Notes under the pieces: generated by a model
Database searches by the model: none
The model's input: only the letters and a program-made list of their open reading frames with translations
Told to the model about the DNA's origin: nothing
Shown here: positions 21,917 to 47,519 of the stretch, one piece after another
Layout of the letters: every line of letters starts with the position of its first letter
How positions within the stretch are numbered: the first letter of the stretch is position 1
Program-made: the position numbers and the translations under genes
Source of the DNA: Actinomycetota bacterium
GTDB lineage: Bacteria > Actinomycetota > Actinomycetes > S36-B12 > FW305-bin1
NCBI GenBank assembly: GCA_004297305.1
Contig: SCTR01000007.1
Coordinates: 25,281-89,280 of the forward strand
Reading direction: 5' to 3'
Length of the DNA: 64,000 nucleotides

Positions 21917-22082
21917 CGCCCCGCCGAGCACGTGCCCACCGACCCGTGCTGGGCCACCGACTGGTGCCGCCCCAGCCATCCGTACGACGTACGACGTCTT
22001 CCCCGACGCACTGCCTGACCGAGACCCCGAGCGGGATGCCCCGCCGCCCTGCCGTTGTTTGAACGACCGAGGAGGACCACCC

Positions 22083-26210: not shown

Positions 26211-26255
26211 ACGCTCGCTTGGTTGCTTTGGGACGACGGCGGCAGAGGAGGCCAG

Positions 26256-27362
26256 GTGGAACTCGAGAAGCAGATCCTGGGACGGGCTCGTGAGATCAAG
26301 ACCGACGGATACCCAATGTCGATAGGCGAGGTACTTTCCCTGTACCGAGATGGCGACATTGATATTCATCCGGAGTTTCAGAGGATCTTTCGATGGGATG
26401 AAGACCAGAAGTCGAGGCTAATTGAGTCGATTCTTCTGGGGATACCTATCCCGCCAATATTTGTTTCCCAACGCGATGATGGGGTGTGGGACGTAATCGA
26501 CGGCGTCCAGCGTCTATCGACGGTTCTGGAGTTCGTGGGTGAGTACAAGAATGAAGCTGGACTGAGGACACCCAGTTCGACTCTGCGTAAGACAGAGTAC
26601 TTGCCGGCGCTGGATGGCTGCACATGGGAAAGCGGTACCGACGAGGAGAAGGTGTTCTCCGAACCGCTGCGTAGGGACTTCAAGCGGGCCAAGCTCGAAT
26701 TCCGTATTATTCGTAAAGAATCGGATGCAAACGCAAAGTACGATCTGTTCCAGCGGCTAAACTCGGGTGCTCAACTCTCACCTCAAGAGGCACGAAACTG
26801 CCTGCTCGTAATGATGAATGTTGAGCTGTTCAATCGGGTTGCTTCTTTGTCGCAGCAAGATGAGTTTGTCTCTTGCACGCCACTGTCGGATAGGCAGGAG
26901 GATCAAGCGTACCGGCAAGAACTCGTGCTGAGGTTCTTCTCACAGGCTGATTTCGATAGAGGAGAAGGCCAGCTAGACGTGGAATACGGGGAGTATCTGA
27001 CGAATTGGATGCGACGCAAGGCTGAGGGCCCTTCTGCGGAGTTGAACGACGTGGACTCGGGTCTTTTCGAGTCGTGCTTCCGACTGTTGGGGGGTGCGCT
27101 CGGCGAAGACTCCTTCAGGCGCTGGGATCCGGAACGTGGCGCTCATCTTGGTCCCTTCTCGATTTCGTCGTATGAATTCGTTACTACTGGTTTGGCATCT
27201 AACTTTTCGCGGTGGGTGAGTCGCCCTGACGAATTGACGACGCGTATTCGGGGCACATGGTCCGAGCCAACATTCCGTGATAACTCTGGAAGTGGGATCA
27301 GTCCCAGGCGCCGTGTTCCGAAGCTGGTACATGCGGCCCGGAGATACTTCGCGGAGGGCTGA
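26256..27362 (+). CDS. DUF262 (ParB-like nuclease superfamily) protein
   Basis: ORF 26223..27362; GTG 26256 follows AGAGGAGG. IDIHPEFQRIFRWDEDQKSRLIESILLGIPIPPIF...WDVIDGVQRLSTVLEF is the DUF262 core (FQR..W, DGxQRL). I see no HNH/DUF1524 motif in the C-terminal half. The region is AT-richer than its flanks. Confidence 0.85.
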   Translation: MELEKQILGRAREIKTDGYPMSIGEVLSLYRDGDIDIHPEFQRIFRWDEDQKSRLIESILLGIPIPPIFVSQRDDGVWDVIDGVQRLSTVLEFVGEYKNEAGLRTPSSTLRKTEYLPALDGCTWESGTDEEKVFSEPLRRDFKRAKLEFRIIRKESDANAKYDLFQRLNSGAQLSPQEARNCLLVMMNVELFNRVASLSQQDEFVSCTPLSDRQEDQAYRQELVLRFFSQADFDRGEGQLDVEYGEYLTNWMRRKAEGPSAELNDVDSGLFESCFRLLGGALGEDSFRRWDPERGAHLGPFSISSYEFVTTGLASNFSRWVSRPDELTTRIRGTWSEPTFRDNSGSGISPRRRVPKLVHAARRYFAEG

Positions 27363-27363
27363 C

Positions 27364-28065
27364 GTGAAGGTTCGCTCTGCTGAAGAAGTAGCTGATGCAG
27401 TGGACAACTCACTCGCGTGGCGCAGGATGGAAATGAAGACGCTCGAGAAAGAAGTTCAACGCGCCGCGCAACTTGGTGAAGACAAGCCCGTTTGTAGAGC
27501 CCTTACCCGAAGTTCGCTCGCCGTCCTATATGCCCATTGGGAAGGATTCGTCAGGGATGCATTCGGCGCCTATGTGGACTATATCTCAGCGTCTAAGCCA
27601 AAATTCGCCGAGTTGAACGATGGTTTGCTTCGAGCCGTGGCCAAGGCGCTCCATAGGCGAGTTGCGAATGGAGATCTTGCGGCTCTGCAATCGGTGGCGG
27701 AGGCTGTTCGGCGTCCAAGTGAGGGCCGTGCTCCTATACCTTCTAGGGCAGCAATGGTTGATACACGAGCGAATCTTCGCTTCGAAGTGCTGAAGGAGAT
27801 CTTGGGATCCGTTGGGATGGATTCTGCCGAATTCGAGACCAAGCAGTTATTGATAGACAAGTCTCTTTGTGACGCACGAAACTCAATTGCACACGGGAGA
27901 TATCTTGATCAGGGGAGCGGGCAGTACCTAGAGCTGCAGAAAGAAGTCCTCCACATGATGGAAGAGTTGCGCGACAAGATTGTATTTTGTGCGAGTAGTG
28001 CTTCATATCGCATCCGAGTGCCAGACTCAGTGGAAGGGGCGGATGTGCTGTCTGGTTCGACCTAG
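27364..28065 (+). CDS. HEPN-domain protein (MAE_28990/RiboL-PSP-like), putative RNase partner of the DUF262 protein
   Basis: This is the in-frame part of ORF 27277..28065. GTG 27364 lies 1 nt after the upstream TGA (27360-27362). The sequence has YAHWEGFVRD... and the HEPN Rx4-6H signature CDARNSIAHGRY near the C-terminus. Confidence 0.75.
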   Translation: MKVRSAEEVADAVDNSLAWRRMEMKTLEKEVQRAAQLGEDKPVCRALTRSSLAVLYAHWEGFVRDAFGAYVDYISASKPKFAELNDGLLRAVAKALHRRVANGDLAALQSVAEAVRRPSEGRAPIPSRAAMVDTRANLRFEVLKEILGSVGMDSAEFETKQLLIDKSLCDARNSIAHGRYLDQGSGQYLELQKEVLHMMEELRDKIVFCASSASYRIRVPDSVEGADVLSGST

Positions 28066-28300
28066 CGTTGCCTACGTTGGGAAGGTCGCGCACGCTTAGC
28101 CCGATTGCAGGTTACGCAGCCCGCTTTCACAGGACTTGCGCCGCGGTTCGTGAGCTTAGCGACCACCGTGCGAAGTGGCTGCGGGCCTTGAACGAGATCA
28201 TCGCCGTCGTGGCCCGCAATGTGCGCATACGCACGACCTCGTGGGAATCGATGACTTGGTCGTTGTCTCGGTTGCTCTCTTTGAGGTAGGGCAGACGCGA

Positions 28301-31300
28301 CTACCCAGGGCCGCCGCCCTCGCTCCATAGCTCTCGCCACACAAACACGTACCGCGTGAGCCGAAAGTCGTCCGTCCCGGTCGCATCGAAGGGTCGCCGC
28401 ACATACCGCAATCGATCCGCCCCCGCGCCCTCAGGCGACACCTCCACGAGCGCCAACCGGTAGTCGTCGCCGAGATTCTTCGCCGTCAGAACCTCGTTGC
28501 GGGTGATGCTGAACTCGTCGGCCCCGGCGATGCGGCCCTTCACCTCGATCCGTATCACCGACCCGTCGACCCGTACCGACCGGACGTCGAAGCCCGGGTT
28601 GTTCGGCGGCATCTCCTCCGGCACCGCGCCCAACTTCCGCTCCGCAGCGAGCACCGCATCCACCGCCCGCCGCTCCACCGCCCGCCGCGCCTCCTCCGAA
28701 GCGGCGAGATCCACCACGGACGCGCCTCGCCACCGGTCGAGCAGTCCTTGCGGAATCACCAGGGCCGCACCGGAGATCACGGGCGGCAGCACCGTCAATG
28801 CGGCGTCGACGTCCAACTCGGCCAGCCGACGCTGCAGCCGCCCCTCAAGGTCACGTGCGCGCCGGTATGCCGTTTCTGGGCGCATCCGCAACTGCCGCCC
28901 TGCCGACTCTTGGTCCAGGAGCAGGGCGTGTTGCCCGTCCCAGTAGTTGATTTCGCTGGTGAGCCGGGCCCGCACGGCGTCTCGGGTCCGCGCGACCGAC
29001 GCCACCACGCGCGTCTCAACGTCGCGGCGGTGGTCGGGCAGCGAGTGCTGCACCGCCCACGCGCGGGCCACGTCTTCCACACCGGCCGTGAGCCACTCCG
29101 CGCCGAGTAGCGACTCCAGCTGGTCACCAGCGGCCGGCTGCCACGGGGCGTAGTCGAGGTACGGCGCAGGTCCGCCAGTCCGCGCAACGCCATCGGCGTC
29201 CAGTTCCACGAAGCCGAAGCGTTTGGACACCGTCCGCGACCGGCCGTCTTTGATCTCCTCGATCGATGCCACCAGCAGCCGCGGCGTGCTCGACAGATCA
29301 TCCGGATCTACTAGGACCGCGCCGTGCTTGAGCAGGCTCGAGTGGTCGTTGACGGTCAGGTCCACGACGGCGTCGAGCAGCGGATGCCCCGGCGCCAGCA
29401 ACTGGGCGACGGGCAACCCTGGCCGGCGTACGTCGTTGCGCTCGAAGCACACCCGTTCATAGCGCGTGAGTACGGCAGCGCCGATTCCAGCCTGCCGGTC
29501 GCGGTCGCGAATTCGTGCCGGGACGTGGGTGATCTCGTGCCGACCGCGTTCGCGAGCGGCAAGCTGCCCGCCCATGCGTTCGAACGCCTCGGCAAAGAAC
29601 GCCCGGATGTAGTGCGGCTGCAATCGCCTGGCCTGCGCCTCCTCGACGCGGCGGCGGACTTCGTCGGGGTCGCTTTGCGCGAGGACGTCGTGTTCGAGTG
29701 CCCGCTCGGCGAGCAGAGCCTCGATTCCCTCGTTGACGGATGCGTCGATGACGCGGTTGAGATGCTCGCGGGTCTCGGGAAGGTCGCCGTACCGGATCGC
29801 TTCGATCAGCAGTTCTCGCAATGGCCGACCCTCGAAGGCGTCGCCGAGCACGTCGAAGACCTTGCCGCCGTAAGCTTCACGCTGCTCGTCGACTTTGGCT
29901 AGCAAGCGCAGGAAGACATCGCCTTCCCGGGTGTCGCGGGCGACGAGGTTCCACAGGTGGCACACCTCGGTCTGGCCGATGCGGTGGATCCGACCGAACC
30001 GCTGTTCGATCTTGTTCGGGTTCCACGGCAGGTCGTAGTTCACCATCAGGTGGGCACGCTGCAGGTTCAGGCCTTCCCCGGCAGCGTCGGTGGCGACGAG
30101 GATGCGCACCTGCGGGTCCGAGGTGAACAGTTCCTGCGCCGTGCGCCGATCCTCCCGACGCACGCCGCCATGAATCGCGACGACGGTTCGGTCGTCGCCG
30201 AGCAACGTGCCGATCCGGTCGACGAGATAGTTCAGCGTGTCTTTGTGTTCGGTGAAGACGATGATCTTCCGTGGTGTGCCGGCGGAGTCGGTGACCATCG
30301 CCTCGTCCAGCAGGATGGTGCGCAGCTCGGTCCATTTGCGGTCGGTGTCGGACTGCCGCACCCGCCGGGCCACTTCGATCAGGTCGTCGAGGACACCGAT
30401 CTCGTGCTGCAGTTCGGTGCGCGTGCGCGCCGCGGTCGCCGCGTCGGTGACGGTGTCCTCGACCTGCTCGACCTCCTCGGCGGTCATGTCCTCCAGTGCG
30501 TCGTCGATGCGACCGACGTCGCGGCCGAGCATCTCGGCCAAGCGATCCCGCAGCGGCGCAGCCGCAGTCGAGCCGTCACGGTCGATCGTCTGTAGCTGGC
30601 GCCCCAATCGGTCGCGCCGCCGCTGCAGGCTGCGCAGGATCGCCTCCGGGCTGGACGCCAGCCGGCGTTGCAGCACCGTGAGCGCGAATCCCACGTTCGT
30701 GCGGCGCCGGTCGCCCTCGCCGAGCGCGTCGGCCCTGCCCATTTCCTCACGGACGTACGCCGTGACGACGTCGTACAGCTCCTTCTCTGCCGCCGACAGC
30801 TCGTACGGCACCGTGGACGCGCGCCGCTCGGGGAAGAGCGGCCGACCGTCCATGGTGAGCAGTTCCTCTTTCACCATGCGGCGCATCAGGTCGCCGGGCT
30901 GTGCGCTGTGCAACCCGTCCCGGAAGCGACCCTCGAAACGGTCCCCGTCCAGCAGCGCGAGGAAGAGCTGGAAGTCCTCCTGCTTGCCTGAGTGCGGCGT
31001 CGCCGTCATGAGCAACAGGTGCCGAGTGACGCGGCCGAGCGATCGCCCGAGTTCGTAGCGCTTGGTGGTCGTCAGTTCGTTGCCGAAGTAGTGCGCGGAC
31101 ATGCGGTGCGCTTCGTCGACGACGACGAGGTCCCAGTCGCTGCCGTCGAGCTGGCCGCGCAGATCATCGTTGCGCGAGAGCTGGTCCATCCGGGCGATGA
31201 GCAGCGGGTGCTGGTCGAAGACGTTCGACCCCAACGTGGTGGCGTCGATCATCGGGCGGGTCAGCACCTCGAAGTCGAGACCGAACTTGTCGTGCAGCTC

Positions 31301-31840
31301 GTCTTGCCACTGGTCGACCAGGGATCCAGGCGCCACGATCAGGCAACGGGCGAGGTCGCCACGCAGCCGGAGCTCCTTGATGTAGAGGCCGGCCATGATG
31401 GTCTTGCCGGCGCCGGGATCGTCGGCCAAGAGGAAACGCAGCGGGCTGCGGGGCAGCAACTCGCCGTAGACGGCGGTGAGCTGGTGTGGCAGCGCTTCCA
31501 ATTCGGACGTGGACACCGCGACCATGGGGTCGAAGAGCGCGGCGTACCGGATCCGCAACGCCTCCGCCGCGAGCCGCCACAGCGCCCCGTCGGCATCGAA
31601 GGCGCGGGTGGTCCCGGCGGATTCCAGCCGCAGCCGAGGCTCGTCGTCCCGCCCGAGCATCGCCTGGCCGACATCGCCGTGACCGTCGCGGTAGGTGACT
31701 TCGAGGAACTGCGTCCCTACCCACCGGGCGGCGACGATGTCGACCACTCCGGCGGTCGCGACACCGGCGGCACGAACGCCCGGCACGAGGTTCTCCAGCG
31801 CTGCGGCGAGTGCGCGTTCGATGGGCGATTCGGCGTCCAC
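28301..31840 (-). CDS. SNF2-family (SF2) helicase with a C-terminal DUF3883 / restriction-endonuclease-like domain
   Basis: LLADDPGAGKTIMAG, DLVVVDEAHRMS, LLLMTATPHSGKQEDF and NYDLPWNPNKIEQRFGRIHRIGQ (SNF2 motifs I-VI). The C-terminus reads LGAVPEEMPPNNPGFDVRSVRVDGSVIRIEVKGR...FSITRNEVLTAKNLGDDYRLALVEV (DUF3883 pattern GxD..S...IEVK...T.NE). Confidence 0.9.
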   Translation of the reverse strand: MDAESPIERALAAALENLVPGVRAAGVATAGVVDIVAARWVGTQFLEVTYRDGHGDVGQAMLGRDDEPRLRLESAGTTRAFDADGALWRLAAEALRIRYAALFDPMVAVSTSELEALPHQLTAVYGELLPRSPLRFLLADDPGAGKTIMAGLYIKELRLRGDLARCLIVAPGSLVDQWQDELHDKFGLDFEVLTRPMIDATTLGSNVFDQHPLLIARMDQLSRNDDLRGQLDGSDWDLVVVDEAHRMSAHYFGNELTTTKRYELGRSLGRVTRHLLLMTATPHSGKQEDFQLFLALLDGDRFEGRFRDGLHSAQPGDLMRRMVKEELLTMDGRPLFPERRASTVPYELSAAEKELYDVVTAYVREEMGRADALGEGDRRRTNVGFALTVLQRRLASSPEAILRSLQRRRDRLGRQLQTIDRDGSTAAAPLRDRLAEMLGRDVGRIDDALEDMTAEEVEQVEDTVTDAATAARTRTELQHEIGVLDDLIEVARRVRQSDTDRKWTELRTILLDEAMVTDSAGTPRKIIVFTEHKDTLNYLVDRIGTLLGDDRTVVAIHGGVRREDRRTAQELFTSDPQVRILVATDAAGEGLNLQRAHLMVNYDLPWNPNKIEQRFGRIHRIGQTEVCHLWNLVARDTREGDVFLRLLAKVDEQREAYGGKVFDVLGDAFEGRPLRELLIEAIRYGDLPETREHLNRVIDASVNEGIEALLAERALEHDVLAQSDPDEVRRRVEEAQARRLQPHYIRAFFAEAFERMGGQLAARERGRHEITHVPARIRDRDRQAGIGAAVLTRYERVCFERNDVRRPGLPVAQLLAPGHPLLDAVVDLTVNDHSSLLKHGAVLVDPDDLSSTPRLLVASIEEIKDGRSRTVSKRFGFVELDADGVARTGGPAPYLDYAPWQPAAGDQLESLLGAEWLTAGVEDVARAWAVQHSLPDHRRDVETRVVASVARTRDAVRARLTSEINYWDGQHALLLDQESAGRQLRMRPETAYRRARDLEGRLQRRLAELDVDAALTVLPPVISGAALVIPQGLLDRWRGASVVDLAASEEARRAVERRAVDAVLAAERKLGAVPEEMPPNNPGFDVRSVRVDGSVIRIEVKGRIAGADEFSITRNEVLTAKNLGDDYRLALVEVSPEGAGADRLRYVRRPFDATGTDDFRLTRYVFVWRELWSEGGGPG

Positions 31841-32001
31841 AACACCCCCGGTCTCGGCGTACGGCGATCTACCAGGTGGCAGGTTCCCACAGCGGGCGCT
31901 CGGAGTCTCCGCGGCAACTCGGGCCCCTCGCTCCGCCGGAGATCCATGTGGCTGTGTCAGACGGGACTGCCAGGGTGCCCCAGATCCAATAGAGGGGCGG
32001 C

Positions 32002-32478
32002 GTGGAGGCTGATCCGACCTGGCTCGTGATTGTGACGACGACAGTCGGCCCGGCTGCTGCGGTCATCGTTGCGGTTATCGCGGCTAGCGTCGCCGTCGGG
32101 CTGTGGCGACGCGAGGAGAGTTTCCGTATGGTCCGCTGGGCAGCCGAACAGGCCGCTCAGGAACGCCGATCCGACCACGACGGACCAGCAGTCGGGACGG
32201 CCGTCCTCGACTACCTCACGGCAACGACCCCCGGATCGCGGCGGTGGTGGGAGCCCAGGCGCCGTCGCCGCGTGCTGGACGCAGGGGGCGCTGCGCTCGC
32301 CGAGGTCGTCAGCGCAGCGCTCGTGGAGGAGCTGCGGTCGCGTGTGGCGGTGGCTGCCGCGGCCGACACCTCCGTGGTCGTCACGTCCGACGCCTTCCCT
32401 GCCGTCCCTGGTCAAGGTCCATACACTGTTCGATCGGAACCCGTGCCCGGGGAGGCGACCGATGACGACGACACCTGA
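32002..32478 (+). CDS. Hypothetical membrane-anchored protein (158 aa) embedded between the helicase and the methylase
   Basis: GTG 32002 follows AGAGGGG. The N-terminal hydrophobic helix is WLVIVTTTVGPAAAVIVAVIAASVAVGLW, and third-codon positions are mostly G/C, as in real genes here. The competing minus-strand ORF (31957..32526) is R/G/P-rich shadow. I recognise no homology. Confidence 0.45.
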   Translation: MEADPTWLVIVTTTVGPAAAVIVAVIAASVAVGLWRREESFRMVRWAAEQAAQERRSDHDGPAVGTAVLDYLTATTPGSRRWWEPRRRRRVLDAGGAALAEVVSAALVEELRSRVAVAAAADTSVVVTSDAFPAVPGQGPYTVRSEPVPGEATDDDDT

Positions 32479-32647
32479 CGTGATCGCCGTGACGCCGACG
32501 GAGATGCGGGCCGCCAAGGTGGTCATCAGGTTGATGCGCCGACGCGGCGAGGCGCCCAGTCAGGCGTTGCTCGCCATCGCGAACGCGACGGTCGAGCCCA
32601 CGCGGATCTCGGATGCCGCTGCCCGGGTCCCCGCTGACGAGGTCTGA
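32462..32647 (+). CDS. Hypothetical small protein (61 aa), overlapping the previous ORF by 17 nt
   Basis: From ATG 32462, within ORF 32069..32647: MTTTPDVIAVTPTEMRAAKVVIRLMRRRGEAPSQALLAIANATVEPTRISDAAARVPADEV. The overlap suggests translational coupling. I recognise no family. Confidence 0.35.
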   Translation: MTTTPDVIAVTPTEMRAAKVVIRLMRRRGEAPSQALLAIANATVEPTRISDAAARVPADEV

Positions 32648-32828
32648 CGCGCATGGTCAGACGGTCCCTCGGCGACCTGTCACGCAGGGGCCCCGCGAAG
32701 GGACCGCGCAACGTGTCTGTCCGACGCGCCATGATGTGCCGTCAAGAGCGGCGACGGAGTCTGTGGACTGAGAGCCGCATGGGGTGATCGCCGGCCTGGA
32801 CGTCCGGCGTGACGAGGGGACCGAGCGG

Positions 32829-35668
32829 ATGGCCACGACGGCGGACGTGCCAAGGCGGAAGCTGATCGAGGTGTCGTTGCCGCTGGAGGACATCAACCGC
32901 GAGTCCGCCCGGGAGAAGTCCATCCGGCACGGCCACCCGTCCACGCTGCACCTGTGGTGGTCAAGGAAGCCGACGGCTGCAGCACGAGCCGTGCTCTTCG
33001 CCCAACTCGTGGACGACCCGTCGTCGCACCCGGACCGCTTCCCGACGCCGGAGGCTCAGGCCGCCGAGCGGGAGCGGCTGCACGACCTGATTCGGCGACT
33101 CGTCGTCTGGGAAAACGTCGGTGACGAGCGGCTCCTGCGCGAGGCCCACGAGGAAATCTTGAAATCCAGCGGGGGGGGGCCAGCAGTTTGCCGGTCATCC
33201 TCGACCCGTTCGCGGGCGGCGGGTCTATCCCGCTGGAGGCTCAGCGGCTCGGCCTTGAGGCCCATGCCAGCGACCTGAACCCCGTCGCTGTCCTCATCAA
33301 CAAGGCACTCATCGAGATCCCGCCCCGCTTCGCCGGCCGGTCTCCCGTCTTTCCCGGCGCCGCCGAGTCGCGGCTCGGCGACTGGCCCCGCGCGACCGGG
33401 CTCGCCGAGGACGTCCGCCGGTACGGCGGCTGGATGCGCGAGCGCGCCCAGGAACGGATCGGGCATCTCTACCCGCCGGCGAAGCTGCCGGACGGATCGA
33501 CCGCCCCCGTCATCGCCTGGATCTGGGCCCGGACAGCGACGTGTCCCAACCCCGCCTGCGGGATCGAAATGCCGCTCACGAGTAAGTGGCGGCTGGGCAA
33601 GAAGAAGGGAAAGGAGGCGTACGTCGTCCCCTCCGTCGTCCCCGACCCGTCAGTCGCGGCAGGGCGCCGAGTCGTCTACACGATCGGGCACGATCCCGCC
33701 CAGGCGCCGACCAAGGACACGGACGGGACGATGTCGGGCCGTCGCGGCGCCCTTTGTGTCGCCTGCGGTACAGCCGTGCCCACTGATCACATCAAGGCCG
33801 AAGGCGTCGCGGGGCGTATGGGCGCGCAGCTACTCGCCATCGTCGCGGAAGGCGCTCGGCAACGGATCTACCTGCCGCCGAATGCAGAACACATCGCCGC
33901 GGCGGACGTGGCCCGTCCGGATGACGTGCCCGAGGGCGAAATCGCCACCAACCCAAGGTGGTTTTCGACGCCTGCATTTGGGATGACCGAGTTTGCGGAT
34001 CTTTTCACAAACCGGCAGTTGGTGGCGTTGACGACATTCAGCGACCTCGTCGGCGAGGCACGGGAACAAGTTCTTGCCGATGCCCTCGCCTCCGGCCTCC
34101 CTGAAGGCACCCGCCTAGAAGCCGGCGGCTCCCACGCCGCCGCCTACGCCGACGCCGTGGCAACCTACCTAGCCATGACCGTAAGCCGCCTCGCTGATCT
34201 CGGCAATTCTCTCTGTCGTTGGGAACCCGTCGCCGAATGTCCCCGTCAACTCTTCGGCCGCCAGGCCGTTGCCATGGTGTGGGACTATGCGGAGGGCAAT
34301 TCGCTCGGCGAATCGTCCGGCTCCTGGCAGGTGCTGACCGGCGGCACGCAACGCGCCTTCGCCAGTGCAGCGTTCTCGCGGGCCAATGTGTCTGCGCATG
34401 CAACTCAAGGAGATGCGCTGGAGGCGGTTTCGCGGAAGCAGGTCGTCATATCGACCGATCCACCCTACTACGACAATATCGGGTACTCCGACCTTTCGGA
34501 CTTCTTCTACATTTGGTTGCGACGAACGTCCGGCGATCAGTTCCCGGCTCTGTTCGGAACCCTGCTGGTGCCGAAGGCAGACGAGTTGGTGGCGAACCCG
34601 TATCGCCACGGTGGTCGCGACACGGCGGAGCAATTCTTCGAGACGCGGTTTCGTGATGTGTTCACTCGAGCACGTGATCATGCAAGTCCGGATATGCCCA
34701 TTGCCGTGTACTACGCCTTCAAGCAAGCTGAGCTCAAGACTGACGGCGTTTCATCGACGGGATGGGCCACGATGCTCGAGGGCATCATCGGCGCAGGCTG
34801 GTCGGTCACTGGCACGTGGCCGCTACGCACCGAGACATCGAGCCGTTTGACTGCCCAGGGAACCAACGCCCTCGCATCTTCCATCGTCCTCGCGCTTCGT
34901 CCCCGCCACGAGGACGCTCAGGCCACGACCCGTCGCGGCTTCCTCGCCGCGCTGAAGGCCGAGTTGCCGCATTCGCTCCGGGAGATGCAGCAGGGCGCGA
35001 TCGCACCCGTCGACTTGGCCCAAGCCACCATCGGTCCAGGCATGGCCGTATTCTCCCGCCACAGCCGAGTCGTCGAAGCAGACGGCTCGGCAATGTCAGT
35101 GAAGACGGCGCTCGCGCTCATCAACCACGCGCTCGACGAGGTGCTGGCGGAGCAGGACGGCGACCTCGACGTCGACACCCGGTTCGCGCTCAAGTGGTAC
35201 GAGCAGTATGGCTTCGGCCTCGCCAAGGGCAAGTTCGGCGAGGCCGACGTCCTGGCTCGTGCGACGAACACGTCCGTCGAAGGACTGAAGCGTGGCGGCA
35301 TTCTGGCCTCGGGCGGAGGAGACATTCGCCTCCTGGCGCCGACAGATCTGGACGCCTCCTGGGACCCCCTGGCCGACGACCGGATCAGCGTGTGGGAAGC
35401 CACGATGCATCTGGCTCGGGTCCTCGACACCGGCGGCGTCGAGGCGGCCGCGGCGCTCATTCCGAAGGTGGGCCAGCGGATCGACCTTGACGCGGTCCAG
35501 CTGATCGCGTACCGGCTTTACGAGCTGTCACAAGCCAACCGGCCCGCGGATGCGTTGCTGTTCAACGCGCTCGGTACTTCATGGGGTGATCTTGCATCCA
35601 CCCGGCGTACCGACCCGGCGCCGACGGTGACGGCACCGACACTCAACTACGGCGACGAGGATGAGTAG
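32829..35668 (+). pseudogene. DUF1156-type N6-adenine DNA methyltransferase, reading frame broken at a G9 tract (frameshifted, possibly phase-variable OFF, or a homopolymer sequencing error)
   Basis: The N-terminal piece runs from ATG 32829 to stop 33278 ([48 protein letters not shown]...). It continues in the +1 frame as ORF 33188..35668 ([44 protein letters not shown]..., catalytic STDPPYYDNIGYSDLSDFFYIWL). The two pieces join seamlessly if the G run at 33171-33179 has 10 or 7 G instead of 9. Confidence 0.85.
33171..33179. repeat. Homopolymeric G9 tract at the methyltransferase frameshift site
   Basis: The sequence reads ...atccagc GGGGGGGGG ccagcag... Confidence 0.95.
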
Positions 35669-35749
35669 TCACTTCTTACCCGAGCCGCCACCATGCGGCG
35701 CGGCGAGTTCCACCACCATTGACGAGCTGGACGCAAGGGGGATCACGCC

Positions 35750-38700
35750 GTGGCGCTGAGCAACCGGGACAGGATCGATCGTGGGCTTCAGGCGCTCGTC
35801 CTCGGGGTGCGGCCGTTCGTCGACCAGCACATGGGCGCCGCCGCCAAAGGCGCCGACTGGGTCGCGCTGCTCACTGCTCGCGACGCCGCGAAGCACGGCA
35901 CGGTCAAGAAGAACTCACCGGACGACCCGCGCTTCCTCCTGAAGATCTTGACCGAAGAATGGCGCGCCTTCGGCCAGGAACTCTCGCGCGTCGACCAGTC
36001 CTATGCCTCCGAGTTGCGCGACGTCGGCAATCGGCTCGCCCACGGCGAGTCGTTCAGCGCGGACGACACCACCCGCGCACTGGACACCATCGAGCGGTTG
36101 CTTACGTCGGTGGGCGCGCCCGACCAGGCCGACGCCGTCCGGACATTGCGGCTGGACCATCAGCGCGACGTCTTCGAGGCGCAGACCAAGAAGACCGTGC
36201 GCGCCGCAGTCGGCACCGTCAACACGCCCGGGACCGGCCTGAAGCCGTGGCGCGAGGTCATCACGCCGCATCCCGACGTCACAGCGGGACAGTTCAACGC
36301 CGCCGAGTTCGCCGCCGACCTGCATCAGGTATCGACGGGGGAGACGACACAGCAGGAGTACGCCGATCCGCGGGAGTTCTTCGCGCGCACGTACCTCACC
36401 GAAGGGCTCAAGGACCTGCTCGGGCGGGCGGTCCAGCGGTTGAGCGGTGACCTCAACGCGTCCCCGGTTGTCAATCTGCAGACCAACTTCGGTGGCGGCA
36501 AGACCCACTCGATGCTCGCCGTCTACCACCTGGTGGCCGGCCTGCCGGCCAGTGCCTATCCGCAGCCGGTCCAGGAAATCGTCGGGCCGGTGAAACTCGA
36601 CGAACTCAACGTCCGGCGGGTGACCCTTGTCGGGACGCATCTCGCCCCGAACCAGCCACGGGTCAAGGAGGACGGCACTGCCGTTCGTACCCTTTGGGGA
36701 GAGCTCGCCTGGCAGCTCGGCGGACGTACGGCGTACGACGTCGTCGCCGACGCTGACCGGTCGGGAACTCCGCCGGGAGATGCACTGACCGGGCTGCTGC
36801 GCGAGCACGCACCGGTGCTCATCCTTATCGACGAGTGGGTGGCCTACGCCCGGGGACTCAGCGATGACGAGGATCTCGCCGGCGGGCGTTTCGACAACCA
36901 GTTCACGTTCGCCCAGCACCTGACCGAGGCGGTCAGCGCGATCCCCGGAGCGATGCTGCTGGTCTCTATCCCGGCGTCTGACACCTTGGACGCTGGCGGT
37001 GGCGGGTCGGCGATCGAGGTCGGTGGTGAGCGGGGTCGTCGCGCCCTCATGGCGCTGCAGAACGTGGTCGGCCGCAAGGCCGACCACTGGCGGCCGGCGA
37101 GCAGCATCGAGTCGTTCGAGATTGTCCGACGCCGGTTGTTCGCCGAGCCCGATGCCGCGGCGCGCACGGAGATCGCTGCGGTCGCGCGGCAGGTCGTCCA
37201 GTTCTACCGGGAGCACCACGGTCAGTTCCCCCGCGAGGCCGAGGAGTCGGCGTACGAGGACCGCCTCAAAGCGGCCTACCCCATCCACCCCGAGCTCTTC
37301 GACCGCCTCTACCACGACTGGTCGACGCTCGAACGGTTCCAGCGAACGCGGGGCGTGCTGCGGCTCATGTCGATCGTCATCCACGAGCTGTGGCGGTCCG
37401 GCGACGCGAGCCCGCTCATCACCCCGGGCACGATCCCGTTGCACGCGCCGCTTGTGGCCAGCGAGCTGACCAACTATTTGCCGGATGCGTGGCGCCCGAT
37501 CATCGACAGCGACATCGACGGCGAGGGCTCCGATGCCGTGCGGATCGATGCGAGTCGCCCCGGCACGTTCGGCGCCCGGTCATTGACCCGCCGGATCGCT
37601 CGGACGATCTTCCTCGACACGGCGGCCACGCTGAACAGCGACCACCGCGGCGTGGAGCGACCGCGGATCTGGCTCGGGGTCGCGATCCCGGGTGACACGC
37701 TCGGCAACTTCGGCTCCGCGCTGGAACTGCTCAGTCAGGAGTCGACGTACCTGTACTCCGAAGCAGCGCGTTACTGGTTCTCAACCGCGGCGTCGGTCAC
37801 CCGCACCGCCGCCGACATTGCCGACCGGCTTCGTGAGGAGCCCGAGGCGGTGTGGAAGGAGATCCTCGATCGGGTGAAGGTGCTCGTCCGTGACCGGGGT
37901 GGATTCGCCGGTGTCCACGTGGGCCCGGTGTCGTCGGCGGACGTTCCGGACCTGGAGGAGGTGCGGCTTGTCGTCGTACACCCCCGGATGCGCCACGCGA
38001 AGAACGAGAAGGAGTCCGAGGCGCTCCGCTTCGCCCGCGATGCCACGTTGCGAGTCGGATCCGCACAGCGGCGCAACCGGAACATGGTCGTCTTCGTCGC
38101 TGCCGACGGGCAGCGGTACGAGGAGCTCGACAGTGCGGTCCGGGCCTTCCTGTCCTGGAAGCAGATTGCCGACCAGGCCACGGAAATGGACCTGACGCCC
38201 AGCCAGAAGGCCCAGGCCGATAGTCGTCGGCGGCAGGCTGACGAGGATGCCAGGAACCGACTGGCGGCGACGTACACGTGGACCTTCGTCCCGACGCAGG
38301 ATCCACAGTCGCCACCTGAGGTCGCAGTGGTACCGGTGAAGGACGGCCAGGGCGGTCTGGCCGAGCGGGTGACCACCAAGCTCGTACGGGAAGGTCTGCT
38401 GGCAACGACTTACGGTGCCTTCTCGGCGCGGATGGCGCTCGATGGGCCGCTGAGCACGGCTTGGGCAGCGGGTCACGTCTCCGTGGGGGAGCTGTGGTCG
38501 CTCTATACGCAGTATCCGTATCTGGACCGCCTTCGCGATCGGTCCGTCCTGGAGTCGGCTCTGCTCAGTCCGCCGATTCTGTGGGAACAGGAAGGCTTCG
38601 CCTGGGCCGCTTCGGTGGATGACGGTGGACGGTACGTCGGGCTGGTCCTGCCCAGTGACGAGACCGTACCGAGCTCATTGCCGGATTCCTGGCTTGTCGT

Positions 38701-39094
38701 GAAGCCAGGGCGGGCCTTGCGGCAGCGAGCAGCGGACAAGGCAGCTGCGGACAACACCGTCGCCGATCCGATAGGGCTGTCCGGCTCCGATGACACCGCG
38801 GACGGGCTTGAGGTGGCGGGACTCTCGGCAGCCGCCGAGGCCGAGCCGGGACGCTCGCTCTCGGTCAGTCGTTTCTTTGGCTCCGTCGGCGTCGATCCTG
38901 AGCGATACAACCGGGACTTCGCCCGCGTGGGGCAGGAGATCTTGCAGCACCTCGCTGCTGTCCCGGGAGTTGAGCTGACGGTCACGATCGAGATCCACGC
39001 CACGGCGACCGAGGGCTTCAGCCCTGAGACAGTCCGCGTTGTGGGGGAAAATGCAACGACCTTGAAGTTCAAGGCAAGCGGATTCGATGACTAA
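35750..39094 (+). CDS. Swt1-like HEPN domain fused to a DUF499 P-loop ATPase
   Basis: The N-terminus has DPRFLLKILTEEWRAFGQEL...ELRDVGNRLAHGESFS (HEPN R-x4-H). It is followed by PWREVITPHPDV...NLQTNFGGGKTHSMLAVYHL (DUF499 Walker A) and a long C-terminal region. Confidence 0.85.
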   Translation: MALSNRDRIDRGLQALVLGVRPFVDQHMGAAAKGADWVALLTARDAAKHGTVKKNSPDDPRFLLKILTEEWRAFGQELSRVDQSYASELRDVGNRLAHGESFSADDTTRALDTIERLLTSVGAPDQADAVRTLRLDHQRDVFEAQTKKTVRAAVGTVNTPGTGLKPWREVITPHPDVTAGQFNAAEFAADLHQVSTGETTQQEYADPREFFARTYLTEGLKDLLGRAVQRLSGDLNASPVVNLQTNFGGGKTHSMLAVYHLVAGLPASAYPQPVQEIVGPVKLDELNVRRVTLVGTHLAPNQPRVKEDGTAVRTLWGELAWQLGGRTAYDVVADADRSGTPPGDALTGLLREHAPVLILIDEWVAYARGLSDDEDLAGGRFDNQFTFAQHLTEAVSAIPGAMLLVSIPASDTLDAGGGGSAIEVGGERGRRALMALQNVVGRKADHWRPASSIESFEIVRRRLFAEPDAAARTEIAAVARQVVQFYREHHGQFPREAEESAYEDRLKAAYPIHPELFDRLYHDWSTLERFQRTRGVLRLMSIVIHELWRSGDASPLITPGTIPLHAPLVASELTNYLPDAWRPIIDSDIDGEGSDAVRIDASRPGTFGARSLTRRIARTIFLDTAATLNSDHRGVERPRIWLGVAIPGDTLGNFGSALELLSQESTYLYSEAARYWFSTAASVTRTAADIADRLREEPEAVWKEILDRVKVLVRDRGGFAGVHVGPVSSADVPDLEEVRLVVVHPRMRHAKNEKESEALRFARDATLRVGSAQRRNRNMVVFVAADGQRYEELDSAVRAFLSWKQIADQATEMDLTPSQKAQADSRRRQADEDARNRLAATYTWTFVPTQDPQSPPEVAVVPVKDGQGGLAERVTTKLVREGLLATTYGAFSARMALDGPLSTAWAAGHVSVGELWSLYTQYPYLDRLRDRSVLESALLSPPILWEQEGFAWAASVDDGGRYVGLVLPSDETVPSSLPDSWLVVKPGRALRQRAADKAAADNTVADPIGLSGSDDTADGLEVAGLSAAAEAEPGRSLSVSRFFGSVGVDPERYNRDFARVGQEILQHLAAVPGVELTVTIEIHATATEGFSPETVRVVGENATTLKFKASGFDD

Positions 39095-39142
39095 TAGCGC
39101 GCCACAGTGTCGACGATGTGACGGCTGCACGAGGGGGAGGGC

Positions 39143-40682
39143 ATGGACGAAACCGCTCGGTTCTTGATCAGGTCAATACTGGCGGAGAACCCAGGACTGT
39201 CCGCGTTCGAGATATCGACGCAGCTCGCCGCCCACGGTATCCGGCTGAGGTCGCACCAGATCAAGCTGGAGCTGGAGGGCATGACAGATGCGACCGCCGC
39301 GCGCCGGCCTGATCATCGACAGGCCTGGTCGGTGCGGTCTGGCGCAGCGGGAATCCAACCGCATCACGACTCGCTGAATGATGATTGGGAGGTCACCTAT
39401 CGCGGACCGGAGTTGCGCCGCTGGCAGATCCGAGCGCTCCGCTCCTGGCGGGCGGCGGACCGGCGCGGAGTTATCGAGGCGATCACCGGTACGGGGAAGT
39501 CCCTTGTCGGCATCAAGGCGGTCGAGGAGGTCGTGCGCGACGGAGGGCGGGCATTGGTGGTCGTGCCCGGCGTCGCCCTCCTTCAGCAATGGCGACGCGG
39601 GCTCGAGGCGGAAATTCGCGGCATCCGGATCGCAGCGCTCGGGGACGGAGCGTCGGCGACGTTCTACGACAATGACGTCCTCATCGCATCCGTCCAATCC
39701 GGGTATCGCCATCGACCCGTCCCTCCCGGACTGGGTCTGCTGGTCGCCGACGAGGTGCATAGGTATGGCGCGCCCACGTTCGCACAGGTGCTGTCAGATC
39801 GATTCGATCGACGGTTAGGGCTGACCGGGACCTACGAGCGGATTGACGACGGAATCACCACCTGGCTCGATCCGTACTTTGGTGGAGTGGCATTCGAGTA
39901 TCGATACGCAGATGCCCTTCTCGACAAGGTCGTGGCACCGTTCCACCTCGCTATGGTCGGCGTCAGTTTCACGGACATCGAGCGATCGGAGCACGACCGC
40001 TTCGACAAGGAATGTAAGGACACCGCCACGGCTCTCATCGAGATGCACGGATATCCAAGGGCACCATGGAGTGCGTTCTTTGAGGCCGTCCAATCGGGGG
40101 CCGCCAGTCCAGATTGGAACGAAGCTCAGATCTGTCGACGGCACCTCGCGGCGTTCATGCGACGAAAGGAGCTGCTGGCCGCCGCCGTGGCCAAGTCCCG
40201 CATCCTCAAGGAAATCGGCATCGCTTGGATCGAGGCCGGTCAGGCATTGGTTTTCACTGAGACGGTGTCAGCAGCCAAGAACGCCGCCGCCGCCATCGGC
40301 GAATTCACCCCGGCCGCAGCTCTCACCGGCGACATAACTCGGCGGAGCCGAGAGATGGCGCTTCGGCGCAGGGCGAGTCCAGGTTCTGACCGCTCCGCGG
40401 CTCCTGGACGAAGGTATCGACGTCCCCGAAGCCAGCCTGGCGGTCATCGTCGCAGCCAGCCGGACGCGACGCCAGATGGTGCAGCGCATGGGGCGGGTTA
40501 TCAGGCTGAAGGACGACGGCCGGCCTGCTCGCGTGCTGGTCCTCTACGTGAAGGACACGCCGGAGGACCCTGTCCTTGGCGGGCACGAGGCCTTCCTCGC
40601 AGAGGTCATTCCACATGCACAAAGTACAGTCACCTTTGACGAGAATATGGTTCGGAGCGTCCAAGCGTGGTTGAGGAGCTGA
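39143..40682 (+). pseudogene. wHTH + SF2 (ResIII/XPB-like) DEAD/DEAH helicase, frameshifted between motifs IV and V
   Basis: ORF 39143..40639 carries RRWQIRALRSW...AITGTGKSLVG, LLVADEVHRYG and GLTGTYER, then degenerates into R/P/G-rich sequence after ...AALTGDIT. The +1 frame, open from 40335 to stop 40682, reads ...FGAGRVQVLTAPRLLDEGIDVPEASLAVIVAASRTRRQMVQRMGRVIRLK..., which is helicase motifs V and VI. Confidence 0.8.
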
Positions 40683-40910
40683 GCCGCCGCCGGTGGAGCG
40701 TCCACGGTGGCTGCCCATGCACGCGAACTGCCGTGCTGACCGGTCCTTGACACCGCACCACCGGAAGTCGACTATCGCGGTTGACGATCCCGTCCGAGAT
40801 CGCCAGCGTGCCAAATGGGCGACACCGAGGCCTCGGCGCGACGCCCGACCGGGTTCTCGGTCGTGGGGTACGCCGCCAGCCGGTGCTTGCCAGGTTGAGG
40901 AGGACGTGCG

Positions 40911-41627
40911 ATGGACCTGCGTTCGCTCGAGCGGGATGGCGTGCTGACGTCGAACCTGCGATACCGCATCACGAACCTGTTCGGGGATGTCGAGGCGAAC
41001 GCTCCTGGCCCACAGGTTTTCCGCGTTGAGCAGGGTGCGGGCCAGACGACGGCGCCGCACTATCACGCAGTCCCACAGTTCCAGGTCCTCGACGGTCGTC
41101 CTGGCCGGTTCGGTCGTGCCGAGGTGTCCGCACCGACGATCCACTATGCGGATCCGTGGACGACGTACGGCCCGATCGTCGGCGGCGACGCCGGCCTCAG
41201 CTACTTCACCGCTCGGATGGCCTCGGACACCGGTGCCCATTTCATGCCGGAGTCCCGGCACGAGAAGCCGCAGCGTTCCGGACGCCACTTCACCGTCTCA
41301 CTCGCGCCGGCCGACGCCGGCGAGGCGCAGGAAGGCGCCGTTCTGGACGTCCTGATCGAGGCGCAGCCGGACGGGCTCGCTGCCTACCGGGTCCGGCTTG
41401 CGCCCGGCAACGGCATCGAGTTGCCCGCGTGCACCGGGATCGGTCGGCTCGTCGCGGTGGTGTCCGGATCGCTGGTCGACGCCGGCCGGGAGTTCGGGCT
41501 CTGGTCGTGGGGATACGCCGCCACAGTCGACGACCGTGCGATCAGTGCCGGCTCCGACGGCGCGACGGTGCTGTGCCTGGACTATCCCGCCGCCGGTGCG
41601 CAGGCGACACCGCGGTCCGCAGCCTGA
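40911..41627 (+). CDS. Cupin-domain protein (function unknown)
   Basis: ATG 40911 follows GAGGAGGA. The pattern ...GAGQTTAPHYHAVPQFQVLDG... is cupin-like (G-x5-H-x-H). Assignment is by motif only. Confidence 0.55.
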   Translation: MDLRSLERDGVLTSNLRYRITNLFGDVEANAPGPQVFRVEQGAGQTTAPHYHAVPQFQVLDGRPGRFGRAEVSAPTIHYADPWTTYGPIVGGDAGLSYFTARMASDTGAHFMPESRHEKPQRSGRHFTVSLAPADAGEAQEGAVLDVLIEAQPDGLAAYRVRLAPGNGIELPACTGIGRLVAVVSGSLVDAGREFGLWSWGYAATVDDRAISAGSDGATVLCLDYPAAGAQATPRSAA

Positions 41628-41688
41628 CGTCGCAGACCTCGCCCCCGTGCTGACGTCCCTGGCTCGTTGCGTTGACATCGCTGAGTCG

Positions 41689-41719
41689 ACGCGGGTGACG
41701 TCGCAGACGTCACCCGCGT
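41689..41719. terminator. Strong hairpin between convergent genes (14-bp perfect stem, 3-nt loop)
   Basis: ACGCGGGTGACGTC-gca-GACGTCACCCGCGT, lying between the cupin gene (+) and the adenylating-enzyme gene (-). Confidence 0.7.
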
Positions 41720-41814
41720 GCCCAGAAAGTCGTTGCCCTCGCCTCGTTATTGTGACGTCGCCGCCCTGACCTCTCGGCCGGAAGGCGCCTACCGCCCGGG
41801 CTCCATGGCGCAGC

Positions 41815-43134
41815 TCAGCTGATCGCCTCCCGGACGTAAGCGTCGACTGACGCCGCACAGGTGAGCTTGTCGTCGCCGGCCGCGGAACCGGCGCCGTACC
41901 GGGTCACGTTGTCCTCGATCGTCGGGCCGTTCCGCCCGCAGGAGCACCGCCCGAAGTTGGCGTTGACCTTGTCCCCGGTGACCAGGCCGCCCCATCGTCC
42001 GCCGTAGACCGGATCGAAGAGCGCGAGTCGTCCGGTGACCTTGCCCTCCCCGGACAGCAGCTTTTCACCGCTCTCGTCGACGATGAGCATCTCGATCCAC
42101 GGTGGCCAGTGGTAGAAGCCGTCTTCGCACTTCTGCGCGTGCCCGGAGATCTCCGACATGCCGAACTGGTCGCACTGCCGGGCCGGGGCGAACCACTCCA
42201 GCACCTGCTCGCGGTAGTCATCGGGCAGGACGAGCCCCTTCGTCCCGCCGCCAAGCCCGAGCACGGTGTCCGGGTGCATGTCGCCGCGCTCGACGCCGCG
42301 GGCGCGCGCCGCCTCGACGAGCTGGTAGGCAAACGGCCACATTCCCAGCAGCAGCATCGGCTCGTCGTGATGGGCGATCACGATGTCGGCGAGCCGGCCC
42401 AGCGACGCGTTCATCCGGTCAGCGGCATCGGCACGAAGACCCTCGAACTCCTGGACCTCTTTGGGAGTGGCGGTGCTCGCCGCGATCATCGAACGCAGCG
42501 CAGCCATCCGGCTGAGATCGGCCAGCGGCACTGGCTCGTCGATCAGATAGTCGCCGCCCGGCTTGGCGAAGTAGCGCACGCGCGCCTGATGCATATAGAA
42601 GCCGCGGTAGCGGCCCTTCGCCGAGCGGCTCAGACTGATCACGATGCGGTCGTTGCGCAGCGGGACCTGATGGGGCCAGCCGAAGAGGCGCTGCGGGTTG
42701 TAGCCGATCTGTTCGATGTCGGCCGCGCTCTGGTCCAGGAACGAGCTCTTGCCGGACGTCCCGCTCGACGCGACGACGAAGTGCCCGGCGGCGGCAAGCC
42801 GGTCCAGCCACTCGTCGACGTCCTTGATGCCCTCGAGATCGACCTCGCCACCGTCGACGGCGGACAACGTGGTCAGCCACGTCGTCATCCGGTCCCAACG
42901 TCCTTGCTTCACGAACGACTCGGGATAGCTCTTGTACGTGGTGTGCGAGAACAGCAAGGGCACGATGTCATCACGACTGCGGATGGCGTCGATCCCGGTC
43001 TCGGCGGCTCGCCGGCCGAGGACGGGGATCTTCTCCCGGTGCTCCTGGAATCGCTCGGCCATCGCCGCCAGCCGAAGCTGCGCGACCTCGGGGCCGTTGG
43101 CCGCGTAAGGGTCGTCGAGTTCGATCAGTTCCAT
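41815..43134 (-). CDS. LuxE/PaaK-like adenylate-forming enzyme (acyl-protein synthetase / F390-synthetase-like)
   Basis: ORF 41815..43275; the likely start is ATG 43134 (MELIELDDPYAANG...). It has an SSGTSGKSSF nucleotide-binding motif, is about 440 aa long, and ends in a C-terminal ...GDDKLTCA region. The family call is approximate. Confidence 0.6.
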   Translation of the reverse strand: MELIELDDPYAANGPEVAQLRLAAMAERFQEHREKIPVLGRRAAETGIDAIRSRDDIVPLLFSHTTYKSYPESFVKQGRWDRMTTWLTTLSAVDGGEVDLEGIKDVDEWLDRLAAAGHFVVASSGTSGKSSFLDQSAADIEQIGYNPQRLFGWPHQVPLRNDRIVISLSRSAKGRYRGFYMHQARVRYFAKPGGDYLIDEPVPLADLSRMAALRSMIAASTATPKEVQEFEGLRADAADRMNASLGRLADIVIAHHDEPMLLLGMWPFAYQLVEAARARGVERGDMHPDTVLGLGGGTKGLVLPDDYREQVLEWFAPARQCDQFGMSEISGHAQKCEDGFYHWPPWIEMLIVDESGEKLLSGEGKVTGRLALFDPVYGGRWGGLVTGDKVNANFGRCSCGRNGPTIEDNVTRYGAGSAAGDDKLTCAASVDAYVREAIS

Positions 43135-43517
43135 CAGCGGTGTCAGTGCGGAAATGACGATCAGCTCCTCGATGCGGCAGCGGCGACGATCGCGGACGAC
43201 CGCGCCAGAGGCAGAACTGCCCGCCAGCGTAGCCGAACTGCATGCAGCCTGATAGGCCGGATCCAGTTGTGGCAAGCGCAGGATGGATCAACTCGTCTGT
43301 TGCGACTAACTATCTGGGCTGAGAACTTGCGGACGCGCGCCGATGGGCTTGCCCCGGGGTCGCGGCGCCTTGCCCGCGGCCGCTCGATGGGCCGCCTGCC
43401 CGTGCCCGCCGCGCGGGCCGCAGCCGCCTGGGCCGTGGCCGCCCCGATGCGGCCACCAGCCGCTTGCCGCCTGGCCCGCGGCCGGCGCGGTGGACACCGG
43501 TATCTATCGTCGGTGCC

Positions 43518-47310: not shown

Positions 47311-47321
47311 GCCCAAGCCGA

Positions 47322-47435: not shown

Positions 47436-47519
47436 CCCGGCCAGCAGAGAGCAGGGCAGCGACGAGCGTTCCGGCGGCCCGATGTTGCACGCGGTCGGGC
47501 ACCACGTTTCACTCGACGT

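Follow-up and report, generated by a model that had tools for sequence, protein, structure and literature searches.

Hma, defined by PADLOC in 2021 (Payne et al., PMC8565338), is the closest described system to a locus found at 28301-40682 in a 64-kb stretch of contig SCTR01000007.1 (the whole stretch is hereafter referred to as the window), in which the genes hmaA, hmaB and hmaC are accompanied by a further helicase gene, here called Hel2. The window belongs to a metagenome-assembled genome (MAG) of an uncultured actinobacterium, named 'Actinomycetota bacterium', with proteins recorded as TAK69425-TAK69431. The sole Hma protein assayed experimentally is HmaA of Halomonas meridiana, which alone protects Escherichia coli from T4 and requires for this protection the nicking activity of its NOV_C PD-(D/E)XK domain; the roles of HmaB and HmaC were stated as unknown in the same study (Liu et al. 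2024, PMC11232893).

Hma was subsequently reclassified as the Type-1 DUF499-centred BREX-related (BR) system, present in 2446 taxa (Nucleic Acids Research 2026, PMC12839542). In these Type-1 systems a HEPN fusion occurs in 1370 of the 2446 taxa and a helicase-nuclease fusion in 79%, and the paper regards the DUF1156 methylase as a homologue of its counterpart in Type-3 BREX. Of the Hma loci, 62.7% were reported to harbour passenger genes within them, frequently GmrSD-like ones (Payne et al., bioRxiv 10.1101/2024.01.29.577857). For MANTIS/Gao_RL, the sister system of Type 2, a reconstituted mechanism is available: the methylase is loaded by an AAA+ ATPase together with a co-regulator and places hemimethylation at 6-bp asymmetric sites, and MtsABC are needed for methylation and also for restriction by the helicase-nuclease (bioRxiv 10.64898/2026.09.23.753747). 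A further member of the BREX family in actinobacteria is Pgl of Streptomyces coelicolor (BREX type 2), for which phase variation at a G tract in pglX was described by Sumby & Smith (2003), as cited in PMC4365076.

The locus in the window is a chromosomal Hma system, that is, a Type-1 DUF499-centred BREX-related defence system resembling restriction-modification, and its architecture (HEPN-DUF499 protein, DUF1156 methylase and Snf2-NOV_C protein) is the published majority Type-1 form and not new. The best explanation of the data, to which a probability of about 0.75 is assigned, is an Hma locus that is off or decaying, with hmaB frameshifted and Hel2 present as an inactivated, unrelated passenger. 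The main value of the analysis lies in a correction, as what appeared in the original prediction to be an uncharacterised four-motor system is a standard Hma locus; this copy, which is damaged or switched off, belongs to a described and partly characterised system, and its special features are either canonical or incidental.

The three hma genes and their relatives

The core of the locus consists of the following features.

hmaA, 28301-31840, minus strand: intact gene for a Snf2-family helicase of 1179 residues with a C-terminal PD-(D/E)XK (NOV_C/DUF3883) nuclease, divergent from hmaB-hmaC.
hmaB 5' fragment, 32829-33278, plus strand: begins with ATG at 32829, covers the helical DUF1156 domain, leaves the correct frame after about 33185 and stops at 33278.
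hmaB 3' fragment, 33188-35668, plus strand: 826 residues that include the complete core of the N6-adenine methyltransferase, a CxxC region resembling a Zn ribbon and, at the C terminus, helix-turn-helix-like domains.
hmaC, 35750-39094, plus strand: intact gene for a protein of 1114 residues, in which an N-terminal Swt1-like HEPN domain is fused to a DUF499 ORC/Cdc6-type AAA+ ATPase.

The assignment to Hma follows from the near end-to-end matches of the three proteins to the PADLOC models together with the expected Pfam domains. HmaA matches its model with 1454.9 bits (residues 15-1153), HmaB, repaired by the addition of one G, with 1097.1 bits (residues 9-927) and HmaC with 885.8 bits (residues 164-1113). 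The Pfam domains are SNF2-rel_dom, Helicase_C and NOV_C (the DUF3883 end) in HmaA, DUF1156 in repaired HmaB (100.8 bits, residues 17-86) and HEPN_Swt1 and DUF499 in HmaC (98.1 and 103.5 bits, respectively). The family call of the original prediction, Hma with its combination of SNF2 helicase, DUF1156 methylase and DUF499 ATPase, was thus correct and is strongly supported by the PADLOC and Pfam profile searches, and all the open reading frames (ORFs) and motifs that it listed for 28301-40682 are present, including GTGKS, DEVH and QRMGRV of Hel2.

The motifs expected of the three activities are likewise found. The nuclease motif of HmaA (GFD...IEVKGR) is intact and conserved in 57 homologues; among solved structures, the matches of HmaA are limited to generic Snf2 cores such as RapA. 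hmaB encodes the methylase motifs I (DPFAGGGS) and IV (DPPY), and HmaB is 56-73% identical to at least 8000 DUF1156 proteins of about 940 residues. The Walker A motif of HmaC reads NFGGGKTHS. An Hma system calls for a DUF499 ATPase with a Walker A motif, a DUF1156 methylase and an Snf2 helicase-nuclease in a co-located block, all of which are found here, and for three intact core ORFs, of which hmaA and hmaC are full length and hmaB is split. The DUF3883 nuclease end, previously taken as an addition, is canonical, given the frequency of the helicase-nuclease fusion in Type-1 systems (PMC12839542). The HEPN fusion on HmaC was also considered as an extra and rejected on the published counts for this fusion.

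The repaired methylase was used to scan a single genome for each species, which gave 284 relatives; the best 80, nearly all from Actinomycetota, were kept, and individual loci among them and elsewhere are denoted by L numbers. In 73 of the 80 related loci hmaC lies directly after hmaB or is separated from it by embedded genes of 1-2 kb, and hmaA is at most 10 kb away in 57, so that the synteny across these mostly actinobacterial loci shows a co-conserved block. The nearest relatives are four Logan metagenome contigs (L085-L088), with identities of 67, 71 and 68% for HmaA, HmaB and HmaC, respectively; the corresponding values for Cellulomonas fimi (L002) are 68, 67 and 68%. HmaA alone is 67-69% identical over its full length to the proteins of L002, L044 and L085. 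Since the nearest relatives share the divergent layout, with hmaA on one side and hmaB-hmaC on the other (common to L085-L088 and L002), and show matching identities for the three proteins, the three hma genes travel together, and the data fit inheritance as one block.

The HEPN domain of HmaC departs from the family pattern. Its Rx4-6H motif (36014-36040, residues about 89-97) reads GNRLAH, where the family consensus is RNxWAH. The forms GNRLAH, GNRFAH and GNTWAH are found in a sub-clade with L002, L085 and L088, RNxWAH in about 60 other HmaC homologues and ANAAHH in a Streptomyces clade. As the canonical catalytic Arg is replaced by Gly throughout the sub-clade, the HEPN domain of this HmaC is probably not a standard RNase. 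The earlier count of two candidate nuclease domains in the locus was accordingly too high, and the clade-wide loss of the Arg suggests that some Hma lineages have kept HEPN for a function different from RNA cleavage.

Compared with Hma as described, the locus has the same three proteins with full-length model matches, the same domain make-up and the same tendency to carry defence genes as passengers, among them helicases and GmrSD-like proteins. It differs in the frameshifted hmaB, in the replacement of the HEPN Arg by Gly, which is shared by its sub-clade, and in the broken XPB-like helicase after hmaC. The curated PADLOC Hma set also needs the genes on one strand, whereas hmaA is divergent in the window and in its nearest relatives.

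MANTIS/Gao_RL shares with the locus the DUF499 AAA+ ATPase, a DUF1156-type N6-adenine methylase and a helicase-nuclease effector, and is the likely template for its mechanism, with ATPase-loaded hemimethylation and methylase-directed restriction. However, MANTIS has a DUF3870 protein (MtsB) and a PLD helicase-nuclease (MtsD), whereas the effector in the window combines Snf2 with PD-(D/E)XK, and neither a DUF3870 nor a PLD domain was matched among the ORFs in 26.2-43.3 kb. The NCBIfam models for Gao_RL score far below their cut-offs (146.8 against 1200 for DUF499_antiphage, 118.6 against 1000 for DUF1156_antiphage and 172.5 against 1100 for phospholipD_antiphage). In Type-3 BREX, the counterparts of the Hma ATPase, methylase and helicase are BrxC, BrxXI and BrxHII, to which they are homologous (PMC12839542), and HmaA, alone among the island ORFs scanned, has secondary matches to BREX models (288-313 bits to PADLOC BrxHI/BrxHII). 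Unlike that system, the helicase in the window carries a nuclease that appears active from its motifs and the methylase has a DUF1156 N-terminal domain, and no matches to PglZ, BrxA, BrxB or BrxL were obtained among the island ORFs scanned. The Snf2 core of HmaA also resembles DrmD of class 1 DISARM (377.5 bits, below the NCBIfam cut-off of 610), but HmaA has the NOV_C nuclease end and the locus has no DrmA, DrmB or DrmC genes; a DISARM DUF1998 or PLD gene was likewise not found among the ORFs scanned.

Frame breaks in hmaB and Hel2

Two genes of the locus lack an intact reading frame. The features concerned are given below.

G9 homopolymer, 33171-33179, plus strand: run of nine G at the hmaB frame break, where one added G (G10) restores an ORF of 946 residues.
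Hel2, 39143-40682, plus strand: accessory XPB/Rad25-like superfamily 2 (SF2) helicase of about 515 residues when repaired, a pseudogene with Pfam matches to ResIII, Helicase_C and ERCC3_RAD25_C.
Hel2 frameshift site, 40362-40369, plus strand: single remaining TTCGGCGC unit, at which an alignment with six intact homologues shows a gap.

The DNA and its frame translations place the frame change of hmaB between 33171 and 33190, either at the G9 run or just after it, and residues 1-121 of a relative's HmaB align by tblastn to 32835-33191 in the 5' frame. Between the G run and the TTG at 33188 lie 8 nt, and no further lesion occurs in the 826 codons that follow. Among the possible events, slippage by one base in the G run would be the simplest single step.

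The run itself is unusual for this DNA. It is the sole homopolymer of at least 7 nt in the window, where a first-order Markov model predicts 15.8, and runs of at least 6 nt number 10 against an expectation of 55.7. The genome thus clearly shows a strong avoidance of homopolymers, against which G9 is an outlier; on base composition alone it is not improbable, since 1.2 runs of at least 9 nt are expected in the window. Related loci, amounting to 1.66 Mb, contain four runs of at least 9 nt, none of them within hmaB. No homopolymer of at least 8 nt occurs in hmaB of the 80 related loci, and the corresponding site lacks a G run in the 39 homologues aligned, as it does at the DNA level in L002, L085 and L088.

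In Hel2, the QRMGRV motif is out of frame relative to GTGKS and DEVH, and the frame changes near 40362-40369. The present DNA at the break reads ATGGCGCTTCGGCGCAGGG, and a second tandem TTCGGCGC gives ...MALRRFGAGRVQVL..., a gapless fit to the family motif LRxFxxGRVxVL. The best reading of the lesion is that an 8-bp tandem repeat has lost one copy, which would point to biological slippage and not to a typical sequencing error.

Both frameshifts could alternatively be sequencing or assembly artefacts, the organism having an intact, active Hma system and an intact accessory helicase. The source is a MAG, one of the breaks falls in G+C-rich DNA at a homopolymer of 9 nt, where errors classically arise, and both interrupted genes are otherwise free of stop codons in the correct frames. 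Against this, two NCBI assemblies as well as the Logan assembly contain identical sequence: the second NCBI assembly (GCA_040959485.1) is 100% identical to the window across 25750-43424, and the broken ORFs (826 residues for hmaB, 498 for Hel2) recur in the NCBI MAG records and in Logan. The Hel2 break is not at a homopolymer and carries the signature of repeat-unit slippage. The two breaks are the only ones seen among about 45 genes, and both fall within the 12-kb Hma locus; the remaining genes scanned in the window have complete domain matches, and an error-ridden assembly was rejected on that ground. As the breaks occur in both the NCBI and the Logan assemblies and no other scanned gene is broken, they are likely to be real mutations, and the artefact explanation is quite improbable. 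The original prediction had hinted at such breaks in speaking of a repaired cluster, without stating that two genes, hmaB and the second helicase, lack intact frames.

A further explanation is that G9 is a contingency tract, slippage between G9 and G10 switching Hma on and off in the manner of pglX, and that the MAG captured the OFF phase. The frame break coincides with the one long homopolymer of the window, the addition of a single G restores a full-length methylase with no other lesion downstream, and the G run at the break recalls the phase variation of pglX in Streptomyces, a precedent in the methylase gene of an actinobacterial BREX-family system as cited in PMC4365076. Moreover, Hma is BREX-related, and loss of the methylase would be a safe OFF state if the methylase directs restriction. 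The likeness to Pgl thus lies in a G homopolymer at the point of frame loss in a comparable methylase gene. The difference is that the tract of hmaB is not kept in relatives, that the proteins and the gene set are not the same and that one allele is known. The tract is lineage-specific, as described above, and the G10 repair gives a linker 3 residues longer than in all 39 aligned homologues, whereas deletion of the 8 nt directly after the G run fits the homologues without a gap. The second, irreversible frameshift in the adjacent Hel2 points to decay of the island and not to regulated switching. A scan of the JGI metagenome collection for the flanks of the G run separated by 6-13 nt gave 0 matches, and the closest HmaB outside the same MAG is 72-73% identical (protein search, 5.8 billion proteins). 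A phase switch is thus an unlikely, if possible, explanation. If it were true, a population dominated by methylase-OFF cells with intact HmaA and HmaC would be in-vivo evidence that the methylase is the Type-1 specificity factor, the methylase-OFF state would be non-toxic, and Pgl-like phase variation of BREX-family defences would have evolved more than once in actinobacteria.

The preferred reading, an Hma locus that is off or decaying, may be considered together with the way in which an intact system would work. By homology to BREX and MANTIS and from the nickase data on HmaA, such a system would be an ATP-gated form of restriction-modification. HmaC (AAA+ ATPase) would load and activate HmaB on a short asymmetric motif, and N6-adenine methylation by HmaB would mark host DNA as self. 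Recognition of unmethylated sites on incoming DNA by HmaB and HmaC would license HmaA, which would translocate by its Snf2 motor and nick or cut with its C-terminal PD-(D/E)XK domain. If, as in the BREX and MANTIS systems, restriction also takes its specificity from the methylase, the loss of HmaB would silence both activities, and a methylase-null allele with intact hmaA and hmaC would be tolerable. A methylase-null allele beside an intact helicase-nuclease is indeed the genotype that would be expected if the methylase directs restriction. HmaA might keep some stand-alone activity in this genome. The gene content, the family membership, the synteny, the two frame breaks and the motif states are observed; the mechanism, the functional state and the reality of the mutations are inferred. 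The locus is most likely off or decaying.

Several points weigh against this reading. The full Type-1 system has never been reconstituted, and the rule that the methylase is needed for restriction is borrowed from Type-2 systems and BREX, because HmaA works without HmaB or HmaC in E. coli (PMC11232893). No solved structures related by sequence to HmaB or HmaC were found. The assemblies probably share one read set, and a systematic homopolymer error at G9 is possible. The length of the linker in the G10 repair, and the gapless fit obtained by deleting 8 nt, bear on the event at the break, and two polypeptides that interact might still be made from the split hmaB.

The description of this architecture as having no demonstrated mechanism is partly out of date. 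Published work explains it to some extent (PMC11232893, PMC12839542, bioRxiv 10.64898/2026.09.23.753747), as a nickase activity has been reported for HmaA, the architecture has been classed as BREX-related and a mechanism has been reported for MANTIS; with regard to HmaB and HmaC of Type-1 systems, it is still fair to call the mechanism incompletely characterised.

Hel2 as a passenger of the island

Hel2 has an XPB/Rad25-like SF2 core with a short N-terminal extension. The nearest models, PADLOC PbeA and NCBIfam dnd_restrict_1, both score far below their cut-offs, and its intact relatives have 450-620 residues and 45-56% identity.

The original prediction regarded the locus as a distinct four-motor Hma variant, in which this helicase, described as a winged helix-turn-helix SF2 protein, is integral with HmaABC. 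Hel2 starts 48 nt after hmaC on the same strand and is probably co-transcribed with it, judging from this spacing. In one distant Hma locus (L075), hmaC is immediately followed by a helicase of 25% identity, and the nearest relatives carry extra helicases as well, of other families (UvrD-like and a second SNF2). However, L075 is the sole match, and Hel2 is absent from the other 79 of the 80 related Hma loci and from all four of the nearest relatives. The G+C content of Hel2 is 64%, compared with 66-69% for the hma genes, and the gene is frameshifted. Variable passengers are, in addition, a published property of Hma (bioRxiv 10.1101/2024.01.29.577857); those in the equivalent slots of L085-L088 differ, being a UvrD-like helicase, a second SNF2 and GmrSD_N genes, which fits the published picture of an 'embedding hotspot'.

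The Hel2 family is also found without Hma (among L082-L084, L089 and L090), in other islands and on a relaxase-bearing element. Its members lie directly behind a TrwC relaxase (L084), beside a DUF6994 gene near McrBC or NERD genes (L082, L083) and between SbcCD and genes for GmrSD_N, a NERD-kinase and an MmeI-like methylase (L089), and one relative is in a plain chromosomal neighbourhood. As Hel2 is absent from nearly all Hma loci and its family occurs in other contexts, it is an island passenger and not a fourth Hma component. The four-motor variant is scarcely credible, and the second helicase, counted earlier as an added component, is in this copy a pseudogene. The family may represent an uncharacterised single-gene defence or mobile-element helicase.

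A DUF6994 protein was considered as a partner of Hel2 and rejected, since L082 and L083 are 90% identical and not independent, and no DUF6994 gene occurs in the window. The ORF 3' of Hel2 (40911-41627) shows no similarity to the ORFs downstream of Hel2 homologues.

Genomic setting and neighbouring genes

Upstream of the locus lies a conserved actinobacterial core comprising recA, miaB, miaA, dapF, hflX, a DinG-like helicase gene, lexA and nrdJ, and downstream a RecB-nuclease/SF1-helicase (superfamily 1) gene, ligD, and genes of metabolism and transport. In view of these flanks, the stretch between about 26.2 kb and 41-43 kb is a small defence island set in the chromosome, 3' of nrdJ. Features that would define the borders of the island were not obtained: no tRNA genes were found in the 64-kb window, no integrase among the ORFs scanned and no convincing direct repeats flanking the island. 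Rfam gave no matches across the window.

Two further features of the island adjoin hmaA.

Low-G+C cassette, 26256-28065, plus strand: two overlapping ORFs, DUF262/GmrSD_N at 26256-27362 and HEPN_MAE_28990 at 27331-28065.
Divergent spacer, 31841-32828, no strand: contains two small annotated ORFs at 32002-32478 (plus strand, 158 residues) and 32462-32647 (plus strand, 61 residues).

The cassette matches Pfam GmrSD_N (85.9 bits) and HEPN_MAE_28990 (96.9 bits) and PADLOC NsnA (195 bits) and PD-T4-2_A (93 bits). Its G+C content is 54-55%, compared with 66-69% for the hma genes, and the earlier statement that the hma cluster has G+C like the host, unlike the DUF262 cassette, is upheld. The cassette looks like a separate defence module behind hmaA and a recent acquisition. 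DUF262 genes recur inside or beside the Hma loci L038, L064, L075 and L085-L088.

The two small ORFs of the spacer have no Pfam, PADLOC or NCBIfam matches, and tblastn against the 80 related loci found none. Their G+C values at the three codon positions are weak for the 158-residue ORF (0.77/0.58/0.75) and better for the 61-residue ORF (0.65/0.56/0.87), and it is possible that the two are not genes at all. Searches of 31841-32828 gave neither promoter-like nor terminator-like sites. An origin of the spacer or its ORFs as a remnant of the UvrD-like gene of the relatives was rejected, as tblastn gave no match.

In the relatives L085-L088, hmaA and hmaB are separated by a UvrD-like gene for 792 residues, and behind hmaA there is another gene for an SNF2 helicase. 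A GmrSD_N gene is located between hmaB and hmaC in L085-L087, and more GmrSD-like genes follow hmaC in L085-L088, with HNH and NERD genes close by.

The nrdJ gene (class II ribonucleotide reductase; 21573-26210, plus strand) is split by an intein with a LAGLIDADG homing endonuclease and matches Pfam Ribonuc_red_2_N, Ribonuc_red_lgC, Intein_splicing, LAGLIDADG_3 and TSCPD; the defence island begins directly after its stop codon. On the other side, a gene at 43702-47505 (minus strand) encodes a protein of 1267 residues that combines a RecB-like PD-(D/E)XK nuclease (TM0106 family), RNase_H_2 and an Upf1/IGHMBP2-like SF1 helicase and may serve either repair or defence; the gene stands back to back with the LigD gene (phosphoesterase and primase-polymerase; 47112-49142, plus strand). 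Between Hel2 and this nuclease-helicase gene, the ORFs at 40911-41627 (plus strand, 238 residues) and 41815-43275 (minus strand, 486 residues) have no Pfam or NCBIfam match and show a good coding signature, with a G+C content at third codon positions of 0.82-0.86. The protein of 486 residues contains an SSGTSGKS motif, spotted by eye, that is like that of adenylate-forming enzymes.

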